From Nitrososphaerota archaeon (GTDB lineage: Archaea > Thermoproteota > Nitrososphaeria > Conexivisphaerales > DTJL01), in the NCBI GenBank assembly GCA_021324115.1, contig JAJPJS010000016.1:76376-140375 (forward strand): a stretch of DNA of 64,000 bases, written 5' to 3'. The notes below the pieces were generated by a model that was not told the DNA's origin, ran no database searches, and saw only the letters and a list, made by a program, of their open reading frames with translations. Position 1 is the first letter of the stretch, and the number at the start of each line of letters is the position of its first letter. Below are positions 1 through 24,589 of the stretch, in pieces. The position numbers were made by a program, and so were the translations under genes.

Positions 1-847
1 AAAATCCATTTTCTCTCTGGAATCCAGCATCCTGAAGTGCCGACACGGCATCCTTCGTTTCCCCTACCATGGCGTAAACCCGGCCGCCACCTGTCCAGGA
101 CTTTGTAATTTCGGTGAGCATCCCGGAGGTGGTGGAAGGGCTCCCGCAAATGAATGACACCATCAATGACTTCTCCTTGCCAACTTGTCTGCTACCCACC
201 ACCACAGAGAAATTTTCGTACCTTTCATTATTCTTCACGTCCGGAAGGAAGACCAGCCCTTCTCTAAGCAATCTTCTGTACCCATATTTTGCAAATGACC
301 TCACCGTCCAACCTAGTGCAAAATTTCCCATCGTTGCTGCGTACTCCGGCGAATGCCTTACCCCACTCCTGAAAATTGCCAACTCAGTCGATCCAGCCAT
401 TCTTATGGGAATCCCCACACTTCGTTCGGCCTTTCCCTTTTCCCATTCGTACAAACCGAAGGAGCCTACCCTTTCCATCTTCATTCTTGCTATCTGCCTG
501 TGCGCGGTGTAGTTATCTTCAGCACTTAATAGGCCAGCCCACTTCATTCCGATTTTTCGAGCATAATTCAGAGCGTGCCGTCCAAGCAGTGTGGCCACGC
601 CCCTTCCCCTCATCTCAGGTTTCACCCGCACTCCCTCCAGCCACGCCATTCCTTCATCAAGAAACCTCACATGGTTCATCCCGACAGGTTCACCGTTACA
701 GGTTGCAACGAATATCCTTCCATTCGAATCGAGCAGCCATTCATCCCACACTCCTGGCACATAATCCCCCCAAGGCCAGGTCTTCGAAACAAAACGCATC
801 AATGGCTCCTTGTCCTCTTTACGGGCCAGGCGAATGCTGAACTTCAT
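1..847 (-). CDS. GNAT-family N-acetyltransferase (3' end runs off the window)
   Basis: Absent from the ORF track because it has no in-window stop. My reverse-strand translation from the ATG at 847 stays open to position 1: MKFSIRLARKEDKEPLMRFVSKTWPWGDYVPGVWDEWLL...WLEGVRVKPEMRGRGVATLLGRHALNYARKIG. This contains the acetyl-CoA motif A (R-x-x-G-x-G/A). Confidence 0.75.
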   Translation of the reverse strand, partial: MKFSIRLARKEDKEPLMRFVSKTWPWGDYVPGVWDEWLLDSNGRIFVATCNGEPVGMNHVRFLDEGMAWLEGVRVKPEMRGRGVATLLGRHALNYARKIGMKWAGLLSAEDNYTAHRQIARMKMERVGSFGLYEWEKGKAERSVGIPIRMAGSTELAIFRSGVRHSPEYAATMGNFALGWTVRSFAKYGYRRLLREGLVFLPDVKNNERYENFSVVVGSRQVGKEKSLMVSFICGSPSTTSGMLTEITKSWTGGGRVYAMVGETKDAVSALQDAGFQRENGF

Positions 848-909
848 ATCCGTACAACCGCTTGTGATGCGACTCTGTCCACTGTGCAACGCTTATAAGA
901 CTTGCACCG

Positions 910-1959
910 ATGTTCCAGAAGGGACGGGAGGATCCAGGGTTGAACCACTCAAAGAATAAGAAGCAAAGGCAAAAGGGGGACAAAGAACCTCTCAACATAT
1001 TCCCCGGCAACTGGGACGTTATGACACCCTCCCTGCTTAGATCCTATGAACTATGGTTTCCTCAGAGCTGGGACCCCGTGGCGCTCGACTGGTCTCAGCT
1101 CGACGGGGGAAATTTCGACAGAAAGGAGGCTATCAGCCAGGCATACTGGCTTGCGAAGCTAGCCCTCTTTGAAAAGTCAGGTATCGGAGCCTTCGGGCTT
1201 GCCGCACTCCAGGCCGGCAGGCACAACATGGAAGACCCCACCAAGAAATTCCTTGCCGCCGTTACATTCGATGAATGCAGACACGACGAGGTTTGCAGAC
1301 GCGCCTGCTCCAGACTATGCCCGGGATTCCCGTACACGTTCAGACCTTCGAACGACTTTGAGGAAAGGGCGGTTCGGAACATCAACGCCCTTTACGAGAA
1401 TGGAAGGAGATACTGGTCCGCGTTCGAAGAGGCATGGGAAAAATACCCCCTTGAACTCATCTTCTCCAGCTTTTTCTTCGCAGAAATAGGGGCCCAGCTG
1501 ATATTCGGTCAGGTGGCGGATGGGTCAGGGCTCAAAGTGTATCGCGATTCATTCAAGAATATTACGAGGGATGAATCCCGTCACCTCACCGGTACCCTTG
1601 CGATGCTTGAGAGGCTGGCTGCGTCGATGGATGATAAACAAAAAATGATGATCACGAGGCAGATGAAGCATGGCTTCATCTATCTTTCACCCCTTCTTTT
1701 CAAACCTGTAGGCGACTTCTGGGACCTTCCAAGGGATTTCTATGAATCGGATTCGAAGTTTGAGGAGCTTGCAAGTCGCTCGGGCCTCGGCGTGCCTTCG
1801 CTCGAGCAAAGGTCAAAGGCCTGGCTCAATGCAATCGAAAAGCACAGGAAAAGGCTCGAGTCCATGGGAATCGGCGTTCCCAGGATCGAGGAAATAGGTC
1901 TGGAGGGCGTCGATGTCTCGGTGAAAAAGGGTGACGCCATCATAACATCCCCCCTCTAG
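910..1959 (+). CDS. ferritin-like di-iron carboxylate protein (R2/AurF-like oxidase superfamily), substrate unknown
   Basis: 349-aa ORF with two E...ExxH ligand pairs (LFEKSG + FDECRHDE; FFAEIG + TRDESRHL), typical of four-helix-bundle di-iron enzymes. The basic low-complexity first 37 aa suggest the true start may be the ATG at 1021 (MTPSLLRSY). Confidence 0.6.
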   Translation: MFQKGREDPGLNHSKNKKQRQKGDKEPLNIFPGNWDVMTPSLLRSYELWFPQSWDPVALDWSQLDGGNFDRKEAISQAYWLAKLALFEKSGIGAFGLAALQAGRHNMEDPTKKFLAAVTFDECRHDEVCRRACSRLCPGFPYTFRPSNDFEERAVRNINALYENGRRYWSAFEEAWEKYPLELIFSSFFFAEIGAQLIFGQVADGSGLKVYRDSFKNITRDESRHLTGTLAMLERLAASMDDKQKMMITRQMKHGFIYLSPLLFKPVGDFWDLPRDFYESDSKFEELASRSGLGVPSLEQRSKAWLNAIEKHRKRLESMGIGVPRIEEIGLEGVDVSVKKGDAIITSPL

Positions 1960-6871: not shown

Positions 6872-8533
6872 ATGAGTGAGAAGCCTACAGAAAACACTGT
6901 CTCTGATGCTTCTATACCTGCTTCTGCAACCATGGGACGACAAGGCAAACTCCGGAAAGTTCTGAGCATGCAGGATCTGTACTTCCTGTCACTGGGTGGC
7001 ATTATCGGTTCAGGATGGCTGTTCGGCTCACTGAGTGCCGCAGGTGTAGCAGGCCCTGCAGCCATATTTTCCTGGGTCATTGGTGGAATATTCGTACTCA
7101 TCATCGCCCTCACCTGGGCGGAACTTGGTGGAATGATGCCTTCTTCAGGTGCGCTCGCGAGGGTGCCTCAGGCCGCGCATGGGTACTTTGCAGGATTCTA
7201 CTTCGGCTGGGCGTATTTCGTCTCTGCTGTCACTGTACCGCCTGTCGAAGCCATAGCCATCATGACTTACGCAACCTACTACATACCGAGCTTAACCAAA
7301 GGCGGTGTCCTTACACCTGAAGGATACGCAGGGTCCATCCTAGTCATGGTGCTGCTTTTCCTGGCAAATTACTTCGGCATAAATATCTTCCGCAGATTCA
7401 ACACCGGTATTACCTGGTGGAAGCTGGTCATACCTTCTATCACCGTAATACTTGCGATCGCACTTTACTTTACCCTGAATAACTTCACGGGATACCAGGG
7501 TCTTGCACCATTCGGAGCTCCACCAGTGTTCTCGGCAATAGGTACAACCGGAATCGTCTTCTCTTACCTCGGATTCAGGCAGGCCATAGACTATTCTGGC
7601 GAAGCGAAGAACCCGGCCAGGGATGTACCAAGGGCAACGATTCTCTCTGTCGTGACTGGAATAGTTCTCTATACGCTTCTTCAGGTTGCCTTCATCGGCG
7701 GCATAAAGTGGAGTGCGTCCGGCGTTACGGCGGGAGATTGGGCGAGTCTATCAACCAGCGCGAGCAGTGTGTACACAACCGCCCCCTTCGCGGAAATATT
7801 CGCGGTCGGTGGACTTACCATATGGGCCGCAATCCTACTTCTGGATGCCGTCATTTCTCCGGCAGGAACGCTCGGAGTCTATACCGGAACATCCGCAAGA
7901 ATACTGTTCGCACTTTCAGAAGGTGGTCATCTCGGTACCAAAACAGGCGAAGTCCACGAAAGATACAGGATTCCATGGGTGGCTCTCATAGCCAGTCTTA
8001 TCATCGGAATCGTCTTCCTGTTTGCATTCCCCGCATGGGCGCCACTTGCGACAGTTGTCACTTCTACAACAGTCTTCACCTACCTTGCCGGAGCCACGGC
8101 CCTTATGTCGTTGAGGAAGACAGCTCCTGAAATGAGGAGACATTTCAGACTTCCTGCCGCAAGCATCATCGCTCCACTCGGATTCATAATGGCCAGCCTG
8201 ATTGTCTACTGGACCACCTATCCTTACACACTCTATGCATTCATAGCAATCATACTTGGACTGATACTGTTTGCAATCGCACGCTCCCGGGGCGCATACC
8301 CTGTCAACGATATAGCAAAAGGATCATGGATAGTCGTCTACTCAGCCGTGATGGTTGTTCTTTCCTACGTGGGCAGTTATGGACAGGGTTACATTCCATT
8401 CCCATACGATTTCGTCGTAGTGGTCGCGGTCGCACTGATATTCTACTTCTGGGGTACCAGGAGCGGATACGAGACCGAAGACCTCAAGGCGTTGAAGGCC
8501 GCTTCGGCGGCTCAGTCGCAGGCTCAACCTTAG
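6872..8533 (+). CDS. APC-superfamily amino acid permease
   Basis: About 12 TM protein with a typical APC N-terminus, LSMQDLYFLSLGGIIGSGWLFGS. The ORF opens at GTG 6860; the first ATG is at 6872. Confidence 0.8.
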   Translation: MSEKPTENTVSDASIPASATMGRQGKLRKVLSMQDLYFLSLGGIIGSGWLFGSLSAAGVAGPAAIFSWVIGGIFVLIIALTWAELGGMMPSSGALARVPQAAHGYFAGFYFGWAYFVSAVTVPPVEAIAIMTYATYYIPSLTKGGVLTPEGYAGSILVMVLLFLANYFGINIFRRFNTGITWWKLVIPSITVILAIALYFTLNNFTGYQGLAPFGAPPVFSAIGTTGIVFSYLGFRQAIDYSGEAKNPARDVPRATILSVVTGIVLYTLLQVAFIGGIKWSASGVTAGDWASLSTSASSVYTTAPFAEIFAVGGLTIWAAILLLDAVISPAGTLGVYTGTSARILFALSEGGHLGTKTGEVHERYRIPWVALIASLIIGIVFLFAFPAWAPLATVVTSTTVFTYLAGATALMSLRKTAPEMRRHFRLPAASIIAPLGFIMASLIVYWTTYPYTLYAFIAIILGLILFAIARSRGAYPVNDIAKGSWIVVYSAVMVVLSYVGSYGQGYIPFPYDFVVVVAVALIFYFWGTRSGYETEDLKALKAASAAQSQAQP

Positions 8534-23182: not shown

Positions 23183-23404
23183 TTAAGAATAAAGTAGTTT
23201 GTCGTCATCAGGCGAATCCAAGACCTTCCGAAATACGATTCTCCATTGGTCTCCTTTCTCGTCCAACCTATGGAATAGTTTTGTTACCGTTCGACCTCCT
23301 GTGAAGTTCGCACCCCTCGACAGATCACCATAATCAACTCCGAGTTCATTCCAGAATTCTACGCGCGAAAAGGTCATAACGTTCGGGTCAAGACCGAAAT
23401 TCAT
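23183..23404 (-). CDS. hypothetical small protein
   Basis: 73 aa. Its ATG lies immediately downstream of the structured non-coding segment. Confidence 0.4.
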   Translation of the reverse strand: MNFGLDPNVMTFSRVEFWNELGVDYGDLSRGANFTGGRTVTKLFHRLDEKGDQWRIVFRKVLDSPDDDKLLYS

Positions 23405-23430
23405 AAGTTTGATGCTTTAGTGGTGTCCAG

Positions 23431-23706
23431 CAGACGAAAACCCAGTCTACTCTTGACCACCCCAATGCCCCTTCCACGCATGGGCACCTCTTTAGGGTTA
23501 GCCTCCTCGTTTAGATGGAACGCATTTCGGTCCCCCTTCGGACCAACCTAACCAATGTAGTGGTTGAGCACCCGTAGCCTACAGCATGTAGGTCTGGAGC
23601 ATCAGGGGGAAATCCTTGTTTAAGAAGCAAGGATCATCTTGCATTTCTCCGAGGAAGAATCCGGCTTCTCGCCAGGGACCCGGACCAGCGTCCCCATCGT
23701 CTAGTC
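23431..23706 (-). ncRNA. candidate structured RNA (unassigned family) or long structured 5' leader
   Basis: Read on the minus strand, there are closing pairs AGACGA/UCGUCU, a long-range helix CUUCCUCG/CGAGGAGG, and several hairpins: GGUCCGG-N15-CCGGAUU, GAUCCUUG-N9-CAAGGAUU, CCUACA-UGC-UGUAGG, AACCA-N6-UGGUU, GGUCC-GAAGGG-GGACC, UGCCC-N10-GGGCA. Several G-U pairs exist only on the minus strand. It lies in a 550-bp ORF-free gap. Confidence 0.45.
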
Positions 23707-23953
23707 TTACCCTTCTAGAAATTTGCGACGTTTCCCTGCTCTTGCTCGTGCGTTTTGTCTAGTGTAGCGTCTACCATCCACTACGTCGTACCTGAATTCT
23801 GTAAATGTTCCATTCAATCTGGTACAACTAAATATTCTTGACGGTTATATGATTTTACAATGGAATCGCATTGTTTGGGGATTTTTGTTTGCCTTGTCGG
23901 TCGTGCTAGCGATTTTGAGTGTTATGAATATCGGGCTATAGAGTGATTGTCCA

Positions 23954-24589
23954 TCACATAAGAGTGTCGGTAATGACTAGTGCTCTATGACATCTTTGTG
24001 TAACTATTCCTTTTTTGGGCCCAAAAAGCGTAATCGTCAGGTCCGCTTCGACTGCACATTCTCCGCCTTTCCCCGTATCGGGATCCAAGCCGGATGGTAT
24101 ATCTATGGAAACTTTGAGTGCACTGCTTTTATTCATTAATTCAATAGCCGTAGAAAACGGCTCCCGTATTGGATGACGTACCCCGGTCCCAAAAATTCCG
24201 TCCAATATTATGTCAGCATTTTCAAATTTGTGTTTGAGGTCATTTAACTCCTCTTTGGTGCGCACTGTGATATGGTGAAGTTTCATACGCTTGGCGATTT
24301 CCCACTGTTGACGTGCTTCATCAGTTTTGATTTCTTCAGGCTGACCTAATAATAAAACGGTGACTTTTGAGAATTTTTCCAGATGCCGGGCAGCTACGAG
24401 TGCATCCCCCCCATTGTTTCCGAGACCGCAAACGACAAGGATGTCCGGCCGAAAAGCTGGATCGTAAATCCTTTTCACCAAGTCGGACACCGCCTTGCCA
24501 GCATTTTCCATGAGAAGTAATCGCGTAACACCGTACTTTTCAGCCTGGCTCTCCAGTTCCCTTATTTGGGTGGAGGTGTAGACCTTCAT
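23954..24589 (-). CDS. NAD(P)H-hydrate epimerase (stand-alone YjeF N-terminal domain)
   Basis: 211 aa: MKVYTSTQIRELESQAEKYGVTRLLLMENAGKAV...ILVVCGLGNNGGDALVAARHL...DGIFGTG. Confidence 0.8.
   Translation of the reverse strand: MKVYTSTQIRELESQAEKYGVTRLLLMENAGKAVSDLVKRIYDPAFRPDILVVCGLGNNGGDALVAARHLEKFSKVTVLLLGQPEEIKTDEARQQWEIAKRMKLHHITVRTKEELNDLKHKFENADIILDGIFGTGVRHPIREPFSTAIELMNKSSALKVSIDIPSGLDPDTGKGGECAVEADLTITLFGPKKGIVTQRCHRALVITDTLM

Follow-up and report, generated by a model that had tools for sequence, protein, structure and literature searches.

What occupies the ~550-bp gap at positions 23405-23953 of a 64,000-nucleotide (nt) stretch of contig JAJPJS010000016.1 (assembly GCA_021324115.1, Nitrososphaerota archaeon), hereafter the window? 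A preliminary description, made from the letters alone, had seen there a helix-rich minus-strand RNA of unassigned family. It took this to be either an independent structured RNA or the leader or riboregulator of an orphan cluster of three small open reading frames (ORFs). We found that the segment belongs to a family of structured RNAs of ~250-300 nt, whose existence we consider practically certain. On balance, we read the RNA of the window (23460-23714, minus strand) as a decaying copy of an RNA family carried by mobile elements, with a putatively self-cleaving core of the type I hammerhead type, built into a five-way junction.

The window segment

The gap has no convincing ORF, as described, and all the complementary segments listed in the preliminary description are present on the minus strand. 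Rfam 15 at gathering thresholds gave no match in the whole 64-kb window, and a permissive Rfam scan of 23200-24000 gave only chance-level matches to microRNAs and small nucleolar RNAs, in agreement with an unassigned structured RNA. The RNase P RNA (RF00373; C20:38079-38365, 216 bits) and the signal recognition particle (SRP) RNA (RF01857; C19:115229-115545, 142 bits) were matched elsewhere in the genome and not in the window. Both sit on other contigs and therefore the segment is neither of them; the preliminary description had likewise failed to fit it to these RNAs.

A tRNA or tRNA-like identity was rejected, with ARAGORN finding no tRNA in the window. Inside the RNA core of 2 of 22 loci, ARAGORN called a 91-nt "tRNA-Val(aac)" (L021:5065-5155 and L029:1197-1287, both on the minus strand). 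These calls are almost certainly false positives produced by the multi-hairpin junction, and could mislead automatic annotation.

Taken singly, the window sequence does not fold significantly better than shuffles. The minimum free energy of the minus strand was -127.9 kcal/mol, versus -123.6 +/- 6.1 in dinucleotide shuffles (z = -0.70). The plus strand had a z of -1.79.

An RNA family in Nitrososphaeria

A DNA search of the own assembly returned two paralogs, one on contig C6 (79% identity, 400 nt) and one on contig C14 (75%, ~210 nt). BLASTN found no match in 40 relatives, including two other genera of the same family. From the three copies of this genome we built a covariance model of the 155-nt core (R1), which detected full-length homologs in those two genera, with 65-69 bits. 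Homologs beyond the genome had been missed by BLASTN, and therefore a covariance model was required.

For a wider search we took a motif from the conserved single-stranded stretches. In hammerhead numbering, it fixed C3-A6, G8 and G10.1, and left free N7, A9, C11.1, G12-A14, A15.1-U16.1 and position 17. The motif had no match in the IMG/VR viral contigs. Among one-genome-per-species contigs it recovered 13 loci, 12 from Nitrososphaerales/Nitrososphaerota metagenome-assembled genomes and one chance match from Micromonospora. Metagenomes, with peat and hot springs as sources, gave 82 loci. Full-length matches to R1 were obtained for 89 of the 95 pattern loci. Together with five earlier loci this made 94 members (75 distinct), scoring 25-184 bits.

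A second covariance model, built from the 94 matches (R2), recovered the RNA from 6 of 151 genomes sampled within the class and from none of 150 sampled in the rest of the phylum. The distribution is patchy, and several genomes carry two to three copies. We also searched 400 genomes of the class for the adjacent 67-amino acid (aa) protein, seeking loci with a canonical hammerhead; the one real match was already known. No prior description of the family was found in Rfam 15 or in the literature searched.

The family has eight helices, six of them with compensatory changes. All covariation figures and column frequencies refer to the 75 distinct sequences, and controls were obtained by sliding the 3' partners by 1-3 columns. 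In the model's own register, 92.8% of the pair cells were paired, versus 37-48% in the slid controls (score 0.445 vs 0.04-0.10), and 31 of 51 pairs had changes on both sides. In the hammerhead register described below, the figures were 94.9% versus 36-51% (score 0.477 vs 0.045-0.10), with both-side changes in 31 of 49 pairs (617 cells). Although the alignment was fitted to the model and so favours the structure, the slid controls stay very far behind. The pairs 226-272, 227-271 and 230-268 of helix H7 had 37-42 double changes each. Loop sequences vary freely and the stems are kept. Covariation is strong, whereas its absence had been named in the preliminary description as a refuting outcome. 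The strand proposed earlier is the right one: G-U pairs are invariant on the minus strand (e.g., in 75/75, 74/75 and 72/75), and the upstream genes are co-oriented.

A probable hammerhead-type core

The junction nucleotides had been overlooked in the preliminary description. From their order and conservation, we hold with good confidence that the core is of the hammerhead type. The 5' and 3' ends enter it through stem I, with (C/U)CCC as 5' strand and GGG(G/A) as 3' strand. Then follow C3 U4 G5 A6 and G8, each in 75/75 (fixed by the search motif in the 89 pattern-derived rows). Between these invariant neighbours N7 is unconstrained (U34/A22/C16/G3). A9 is present in 73/75. G10.1 (74) and C11.1 (75 of 75) close the covarying stem II (H5), and G12 (73), A13 (74) and A14 (72) lie between stem II and stem III. 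The pair A15.1-U16.1 opens a long covarying arm (AU 72, GU 2). Position 17 (column 287) is a single nucleotide, C50/A17/U6 and never G, next to column 286 with U in 74. GUC is the commonest cleavage triplet, in agreement with the NUH requirement.

Covariation of stem I is seen only if C3 and H17 stay unpaired. In that register, the outer pair (columns 2 and 292) is CG34/UA25/UG5 and hence paired in 64/75. The P1 register of the model, in which C3 is paired, was rejected: its outer pair formed in 46/75 (CG46, with 29 mismatches). Seven homologs were derived from the model, independently of the motif, and all seven kept CUGANGA. Several of them had compensatory changes of stem I, giving CCUC.../...GAGG-type stems, for example L116 (CCCUCU/AGAGGG; CCCUCU followed by CUGACGA ... 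CGU-A-AGAGGG) and L118 (CUCC/GGAG; CUCC followed by CUGAUGA ... A-GGAG). The latter carries the known U15.1-A16.1 variant. In the intact C6 copy (G000 C6:19134-19433), the predicted cut after position 17 falls between ...GGGGGCAUU and GGGG, and in the Nitrososphaerales copy L023:4810-5120 between ...GCGUGUC and GGGA. A box C-like kink-turn (k-turn) formed by CUGAUGA itself was also considered and rejected, there being no GA on the opposing strand.

The core departs from the published hammerhead alignments between A9 and G10.1, where an invariant U13, hairpin H2/H3, an invariant U61, hairpin H4 and an invariant U113 are inserted. This two-hairpin insertion makes the junction five-way instead of three-way. 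It measures ~60-110 nt depending on loop size (alignment columns 13-113) and is present in 94/94 members. The base of H4 is an invariant G.U / C-G / U.G. Divergent homologs keep H2 and H4, with H4 down to ~7 nt in the weakest match, L119.

Several points weigh against a hammerhead. In solved hammerheads the A9/G10.1 site is important for metal binding and stacking, and here it is interrupted. None of the 94 members has CUGANGA contiguous with stem II, even allowing for 1-2 inserted nt. The Rfam hammerhead models matched neither the window nor 14 intact loci, at gathering thresholds or at E <= 10. The insertion could explain this missing match, and hammerhead membership then rests on manual reading. 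The invariance of C3-A6, G8 and G10.1 is by construction in the 89 pattern-derived rows, with only the seven homologs being independent. Further invariant nucleotides (H2 CCC/GGG, the H4 base, U13, U61 and U113) are needless in a minimal hammerhead, and the L009-type subgroup aligns poorly in the GAAA region. Self-cleavage is a prediction from sequence. The insertion is without precedent: in known hammerhead alignments there are at most 1-2 inserted nt between CUGAnGA and the adjacent stems (Eckert et al. 2023, PMC10085705). Because of the large insertion and the missing Rfam hammerhead score, we classed the RNA as a candidate hammerhead-type core in a new architecture, outside the existing Rfam families.

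K-turn and 5' domain

Stem III has the pattern of a k-turn, with C217-G279, the bulge G218-N219-U220, and the pairs G221.A278, A222.G277 and A223.G276. By reading of the sequences, each of these three G.A-type pairs is kept in at least 72 of 75. In some divergent homologs the arm is shortened and the k-turn is missing, and in the window copy it is broken. K-turns bind L7Ae in archaea, and by analogy the one in stem III may do so.

Between the preceding stop codon and stem I, two to four extra hairpins fill the space. RNAalifold on a MAFFT alignment across subgroups gave no consensus for this 5' domain, because the hairpins shift by one column between subgroups. We judged them from per-sequence folds and by direct reading. 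For example, hairpin Pb is CCUGCA/UGCAGG, CACGAC/GUCGUG, UUCCUUC/GAAGGAA or CCUCC/GGAGG in different subgroups, the hairpin persisting with a wholly different sequence. An upstream G-run (GGGGA or CAGGGA) can pair with the 5' strand of stem I plus C3-G5. For the Nitrososphaerales subgroup, RNAalifold predicted such a pairing, CAGGGA/UCCCCUG, which would sequester stem I and C3-G5. It may represent an alternative conformer, or off-state.

The decayed copy in the window

By self-comparison, the window shares with C6 only a 580-bp block, at 23200-23780 (Table 1). On C6, the RNA is flanked by a 74-aa gene and a 396-aa gene, both of them intact. In the window, the 74-aa gene is reduced to its final ~22 codons, with the stop at 23717-23715. 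The "73-aa ORF", described as part of an orphan three-gene cluster, is in fact the truncated N-terminus (68 residues) of the 396-aa orphan protein, which is intact in L004:1878-3068 (78% identity over 68 aa). The other two ORFs of the cluster (143 aa and 75 aa) have no counterpart at the paralogous loci.

The family model scored the C6, C14 and window copies with 153, 127.7 and 102.6 bits, respectively. The C6 copy had no deviation at columns at least 95% conserved, and 0 unpaired model pairs. At such columns, the C14 copy had A9→G and a k-turn A→G, with 5 model pairs unpaired. The window copy had A9→C (23599), the first k-turn G→U (23513) and one further deviation, with 9 model pairs unpaired. 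With these losses, and with a truncated gene on either side, it is probably a decaying, inactive relic on a mobile-element fragment, and not the functional RNA that had been supposed.

Most of the local hairpins of the preliminary description correspond to helices with compensatory changes: GGUCCGG/CCGGAUU is Pa, GAUCCUUG/CAAGGAUU is Pc, CCUACA/UGUAGG is H3, AACCA/UGGUU is H4 and GGUCC/GGACC is H5, that is, stem II. Its long-range helix CUUCCUCG/CGAGGAGG, extended by AAUGC/GCGUU, and its 3' hairpin UGCCC/GGGCA find no support, their nucleotides forming the covarying stem III helices H6/H7 across the family. Both are apparent only because H7 has mismatches here and the local hairpin CCUGCA-GAAA-UGCAGG is degraded. 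The closing pair AGACGA/UCGUCU is shared only by the nearest paralogs, is mismatched in the C6 copy and has no family-wide conservation. The upstream GUAGACG, suggested as an alternative 5' closing strand, falls within the remnant of coding sequence.

Table 1 Features of the RNA locus in the window (positions in the window, minus strand read).
Feature	Position	Strand	Remarks
c3-family small helical protein remnant (C-terminus; 74 aa when intact)	23715..23780	-	reads ...WMVDATLDKTHEQEQGNVANF and stop; homology to C6 starts at 23780
RNA 5' domain	23614..23714	-	hairpins shared by position, sequences entirely different between subgroups
G-run motif GAUGGGGAC in 5' domain	23698-23690	-	
Hairpin Pa	23686-23658	-	
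Degraded hairpin Pb	23654-23638	-	reads CCUCGGAGAAAUGCAAG here; CCUGCA-GAAA-UGCAGG in intact copies
Hairpin Pc	23632-23614	-	
Hammerhead-like core	23460..23609	-	full-length match to models R1 and R2
Stem I 5' strand CCCC	23609-23606	-	
C3 U4 G5 A6 U7 G8	23605-23600	-	
Position 9	23599	-	C here; A in 73/75 family members
Inserted hairpin H2/H3	23597-23571	-	
Inserted hairpin H4	23569-23546	-	
Stem II (H5)	23544-23529	-	
G12 A13 A14	23528-23526	-	
Stem III arm (H6-H8) with k-turn-type internal loop	23465..23525	-	H7 with three mismatches
K-turn bulged strand	23518-23509	-	CC-AUC-UAA-AC here vs family consensus CC-GUU-GAA-GC
K-turn tandem G.A, first G	23513	-	U in window copy
K-turn opposite strand GGA	23475-23473	-	
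Predicted hammerhead cleavage site, U17 (23464) / G1.1 (23463)	23463..23464	-	inferred from alignment, family columns 286-292
Stem I 3' strand GGGG	23463-23460	-	
Spacer, RNA core to next start codon	23405..23459	-	conserved only among close paralogs; has UUUU run and UCGUCU
73-aa ORF, truncated N-terminal fragment of 396-aa orphan	23183..23404	-	DNA homology ends at 23200

Genomic context and host elements

About 60 loci had enough flanking sequence to be compared; in these, the RNA comes immediately behind the stop codon that ends a conserved operon of orphan genes, on the same strand. The first protein of the operon, ~730 aa long (L023:367-2565; L100:839-3100; L011:4656-6824), has an N-terminal GHKL/HSP90-like ATPase signature, with motifs like E..NA..A, D.G.GM and GxFGLG. 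Its support by hidden Markov models is weak (NCBIfam HSP90 family, E 1.5e-4; PHROG RIIA, 6e-4; no Pfam match). The last gene before the RNA encodes a helical protein of 67-74 aa. Several of the operon proteins had no Pfam, NCBIfam, PADLOC or PHROG match.

TraG/VirD4-type coupling proteins (869 and 836 aa) were found 8-10 kb from the RNA in C6 and L120. TraG is thus near the RNA in both lineages examined, Conexivisphaerales-like and Nitrososphaerales. We inspected 20-kb stretches around the RNA in C6 and L120 and saw neither VirB4 (Pfam) nor an integrase there; close to the C14 copy there is an rve integrase. The host elements are probably integrated, conjugative-element-like mobile elements of Nitrososphaeria.

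Downstream of the RNA the genes vary. We recognized an OLD-family nuclease (AAA_15+TOPRIM), GmrSD, a type I restriction-modification specificity subunit, and an N6/N4 methyltransferase with a ResIII helicase. Near the C14 copy, an orphan 288-aa ORF is followed by SLFN_AlbA_2, HEPN and Piwi genes. The variable region after the RNA, which often contains such defence-type genes (L076:3829-5841; L022:4337-6016; L090:5251-6249; L120:16659-21153; L015:10001-19292), looks like a defence-cargo hotspot. Of 13 long loci, 8 have a same-strand gene next, at a distance of 65-380 nt, and at least 3 have a gene on the opposite strand there. With downstream genes so variable in identity and strand, a role as 3' end or insulator fits better than that of a leader for one gene. 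Retron, defence-associated reverse transcriptase (DRT), IscB and TnpB guide RNAs were rejected as candidates, because none of the neighbours had a reverse transcriptase (RT), HNH, RuvC or OrfB domain.

In two other genera (L010:3-791 (+) and 831-1469 (-); L009:837-1316 (-)), the genes that follow the RNA encode Zn-ribbon/winged-helix-like proteins, 212 and 159 aa long and homologous to each other. In genome G001, the neighbours of the RNA also include the C-terminal portion of a Piwi/Argonaute-like gene and an insertion sequence-type transposase. A few kb downstream of the C6 copy there is an island (L011:14786-21191) with weak TGT-like and PCNA_N-like matches and a DEAD helicase, perhaps a module by which the element modifies or replicates DNA. 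At L073:272-373 (+), ~200 nt upstream of the RNA, we found a match to group II intron domain V/VI (RF00029, 56.9 bits, E 6e-9). Two divergent RNA copies, 39.5 bits each, lie 1648 nt apart at L122:6078-6207 and 7726-7855 (-) (G147:C1). The surrounding region contains 300-nt direct repeats, in three copies with 86-100% identity to the reference copy. Arranged in tandem like this, the two RNA copies could give a unit-length RNA if both cleave.

Alternative explanations

The RNA could be real and structured and yet non-catalytic, a ribonucleoprotein scaffold or cis-regulatory element whose hammerhead-like nucleotides serve another tertiary fold. Such an RNA might stabilise the 3' end, serve as a read-through or antitermination signal towards the cargo region, or act together with the 67-74-aa protein and L7Ae. 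Covariation proves structure and not catalysis, and the many conserved positions beyond the hammerhead core, the large A9/G10.1 insertion and the silence of the Rfam hammerhead models all fit such an RNA. So do the gene of the small helical protein, which always adjoins upstream, and the k-turn, which suggests protein binding. Nevertheless, six independent hammerhead features are correctly placed relative to three covarying stems, with N7 free, position 17 never G, A15.1-U16.1 invariant and GUC as the commonest triplet; we roughly estimate such a coincidence, in an unrelated junction, at ~1e-7. We therefore consider a non-catalytic RNA unlikely, although it is the most serious of the alternatives to a hammerhead-type core.

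Of the earlier proposals, a structured minus-strand RNA outside the Rfam families stands, and a leader or riboregulator of three small ORFs falls. A functional leader, controlling the orphan three-gene cluster through alternative conformers, would agree with an RNA ending 55 nt before the ATG at 23404, with the same-strand genes shortly downstream at most of the long loci and with the upstream G-runs that could pair with the 5' strand of stem I. However, the first ORF of the cluster is a truncated fragment, no paralogous locus has a relative of the other two, the constant partner at the ~60 loci is the upstream operon, and the downstream genes differ by locus and are in several cases on the opposite strand. 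The proposed long-range helix clashes with covarying helices, and the copy in question has lost conserved nucleotides and 9 model pairs. We regard this explanation as very improbable. Conservation at another level than RNA, as a small protein gene on either strand or as a DNA site (att/recombination site, origin of transfer (oriT) or single-strand promoter), deserves still less credence. Same-sense ORFs of 55 and 83 aa do run across the 3' half of the C6 and C14 copies, 48 of 74 sequences have an antisense frame that stays open over the core, and the element sits at the boundary of conserved and variable DNA. But the core (152-220 nt) and each of the four variable loops vary in length over every class modulo 3, and sense frames are open across the core in 24/74, about the chance rate. 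Moreover, helices are kept by double substitutions, stems stay as loops vary, and several invariant G-U pairs would be A-C mismatches on the other strand. From indel lengths and covariation we rejected a protein-coding reading.

Proposed mechanism and significance

For a hammerhead-type core, we infer catalysis, co-transcription, L7Ae binding and biological role from the sequences as follows. The RNA would be co-transcribed with the upstream operon and would cleave itself after position 17, mostly at a GUC triplet. The 3' end of the operon mRNA would then be highly structured and carry a 2',3'-cyclic phosphate, and the downstream RNA would be released with a 5'-OH. Cleavage would thereby uncouple the conserved module from the variable cargo. 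The full picture would be a new hammerhead architecture: a five-way junction of ~250-300 nt with hairpins at A9/G10.1, a stem III k-turn recruiting L7Ae, and cleavage gated by protein or conformation, the RNA separating the conserved module of archaeal conjugative elements from their defence cargo as an insulator or by forming a 3' end. We propose it tentatively, as quite possible in all its parts together but short of probable.

Cleavage by this core would break a rule derived from thousands of hammerheads, namely that CUGANGA must abut stem II. The hammerhead fold would then tolerate, or exploit, a structured insertion at its metal-binding corner. Archaea, in which very few ribozymes are known, would gain a large and possibly protein-assisted one. 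For thaumarchaeal conjugative elements, in which almost every gene is an orphan, the RNA would be the first conserved RNA landmark and would make it easier to locate them and their defence-cargo hotspot. Without cleavage, this is still a well-supported new family of structured RNAs outside Rfam 15. For annotation, the window segment and the 73-aa ORF are to be taken as mobile-element relics, and not as a functional riboregulator plus gene cluster.

Comparison with known systems

With type I hammerheads (RF00163; type III, RF00008) the RNA shares the order of the core, stem I-C3UGANGA9-...G10.1-C11.1 stem II-G12AA14-A15.1-U16.1 stem III-H17-stem I, as well as the free N7, a position 17 that is never G, GUC as the commonest triplet and ends that enter via stem I. 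It differs by the inserted H2/H3 and H4, the long stem III with a k-turn and the 5' domain of 2-4 hairpins. Its size is ~250-300 nt, versus 50-80 nt in type I hammerheads.

Other large multi-helix RNAs, such as GOLLD, ROOL and HEARO/omega RNA, are also patchy in distribution and linked to mobile elements, with functions unknown or recently found; they are bacterial, and unrelated in sequence and structure. None of them matched this RNA in Rfam and, unlike in those systems, no IscB, TnpB or RT gene lies beside it.

Prokaryotic hammerheads are typically intergenic, in operons of prophages or mobile elements (Perreault et al. 2011, PMC3088659). The HHphage ribozymes of the haloviruses HF1/HF2 have core insertions of 1-2 nt (2a/2b, A6a, U13a) and are otherwise minimal, with three stems (PMC3088659). 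Our RNA resembles them in lying between genes of a presumably polycistronic mobile-element transcript, close upstream of the next gene, in archaeal hosts, and in having natural insertions in the core; here, these are two structured hairpins instead of 1-2 nt. The non-circularly permuted hammerheads (type-SGC / HRIMA-1; PMC10085705) were, like this RNA, missed by standard models and recognized from core blocks and covariation. Their blocks are re-ordered yet contiguous with the stems, whereas here the order is canonical and block C is split from stem II by the insert.

Thaumarchaeal integrative-conjugative elements have been described by Krupovic et al. 2019 (PMC6563490), in a paper that mentions no non-coding RNA. 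The host elements found here have in common with them the TraG/VirD4-type coupling protein and the defence-type cargo.

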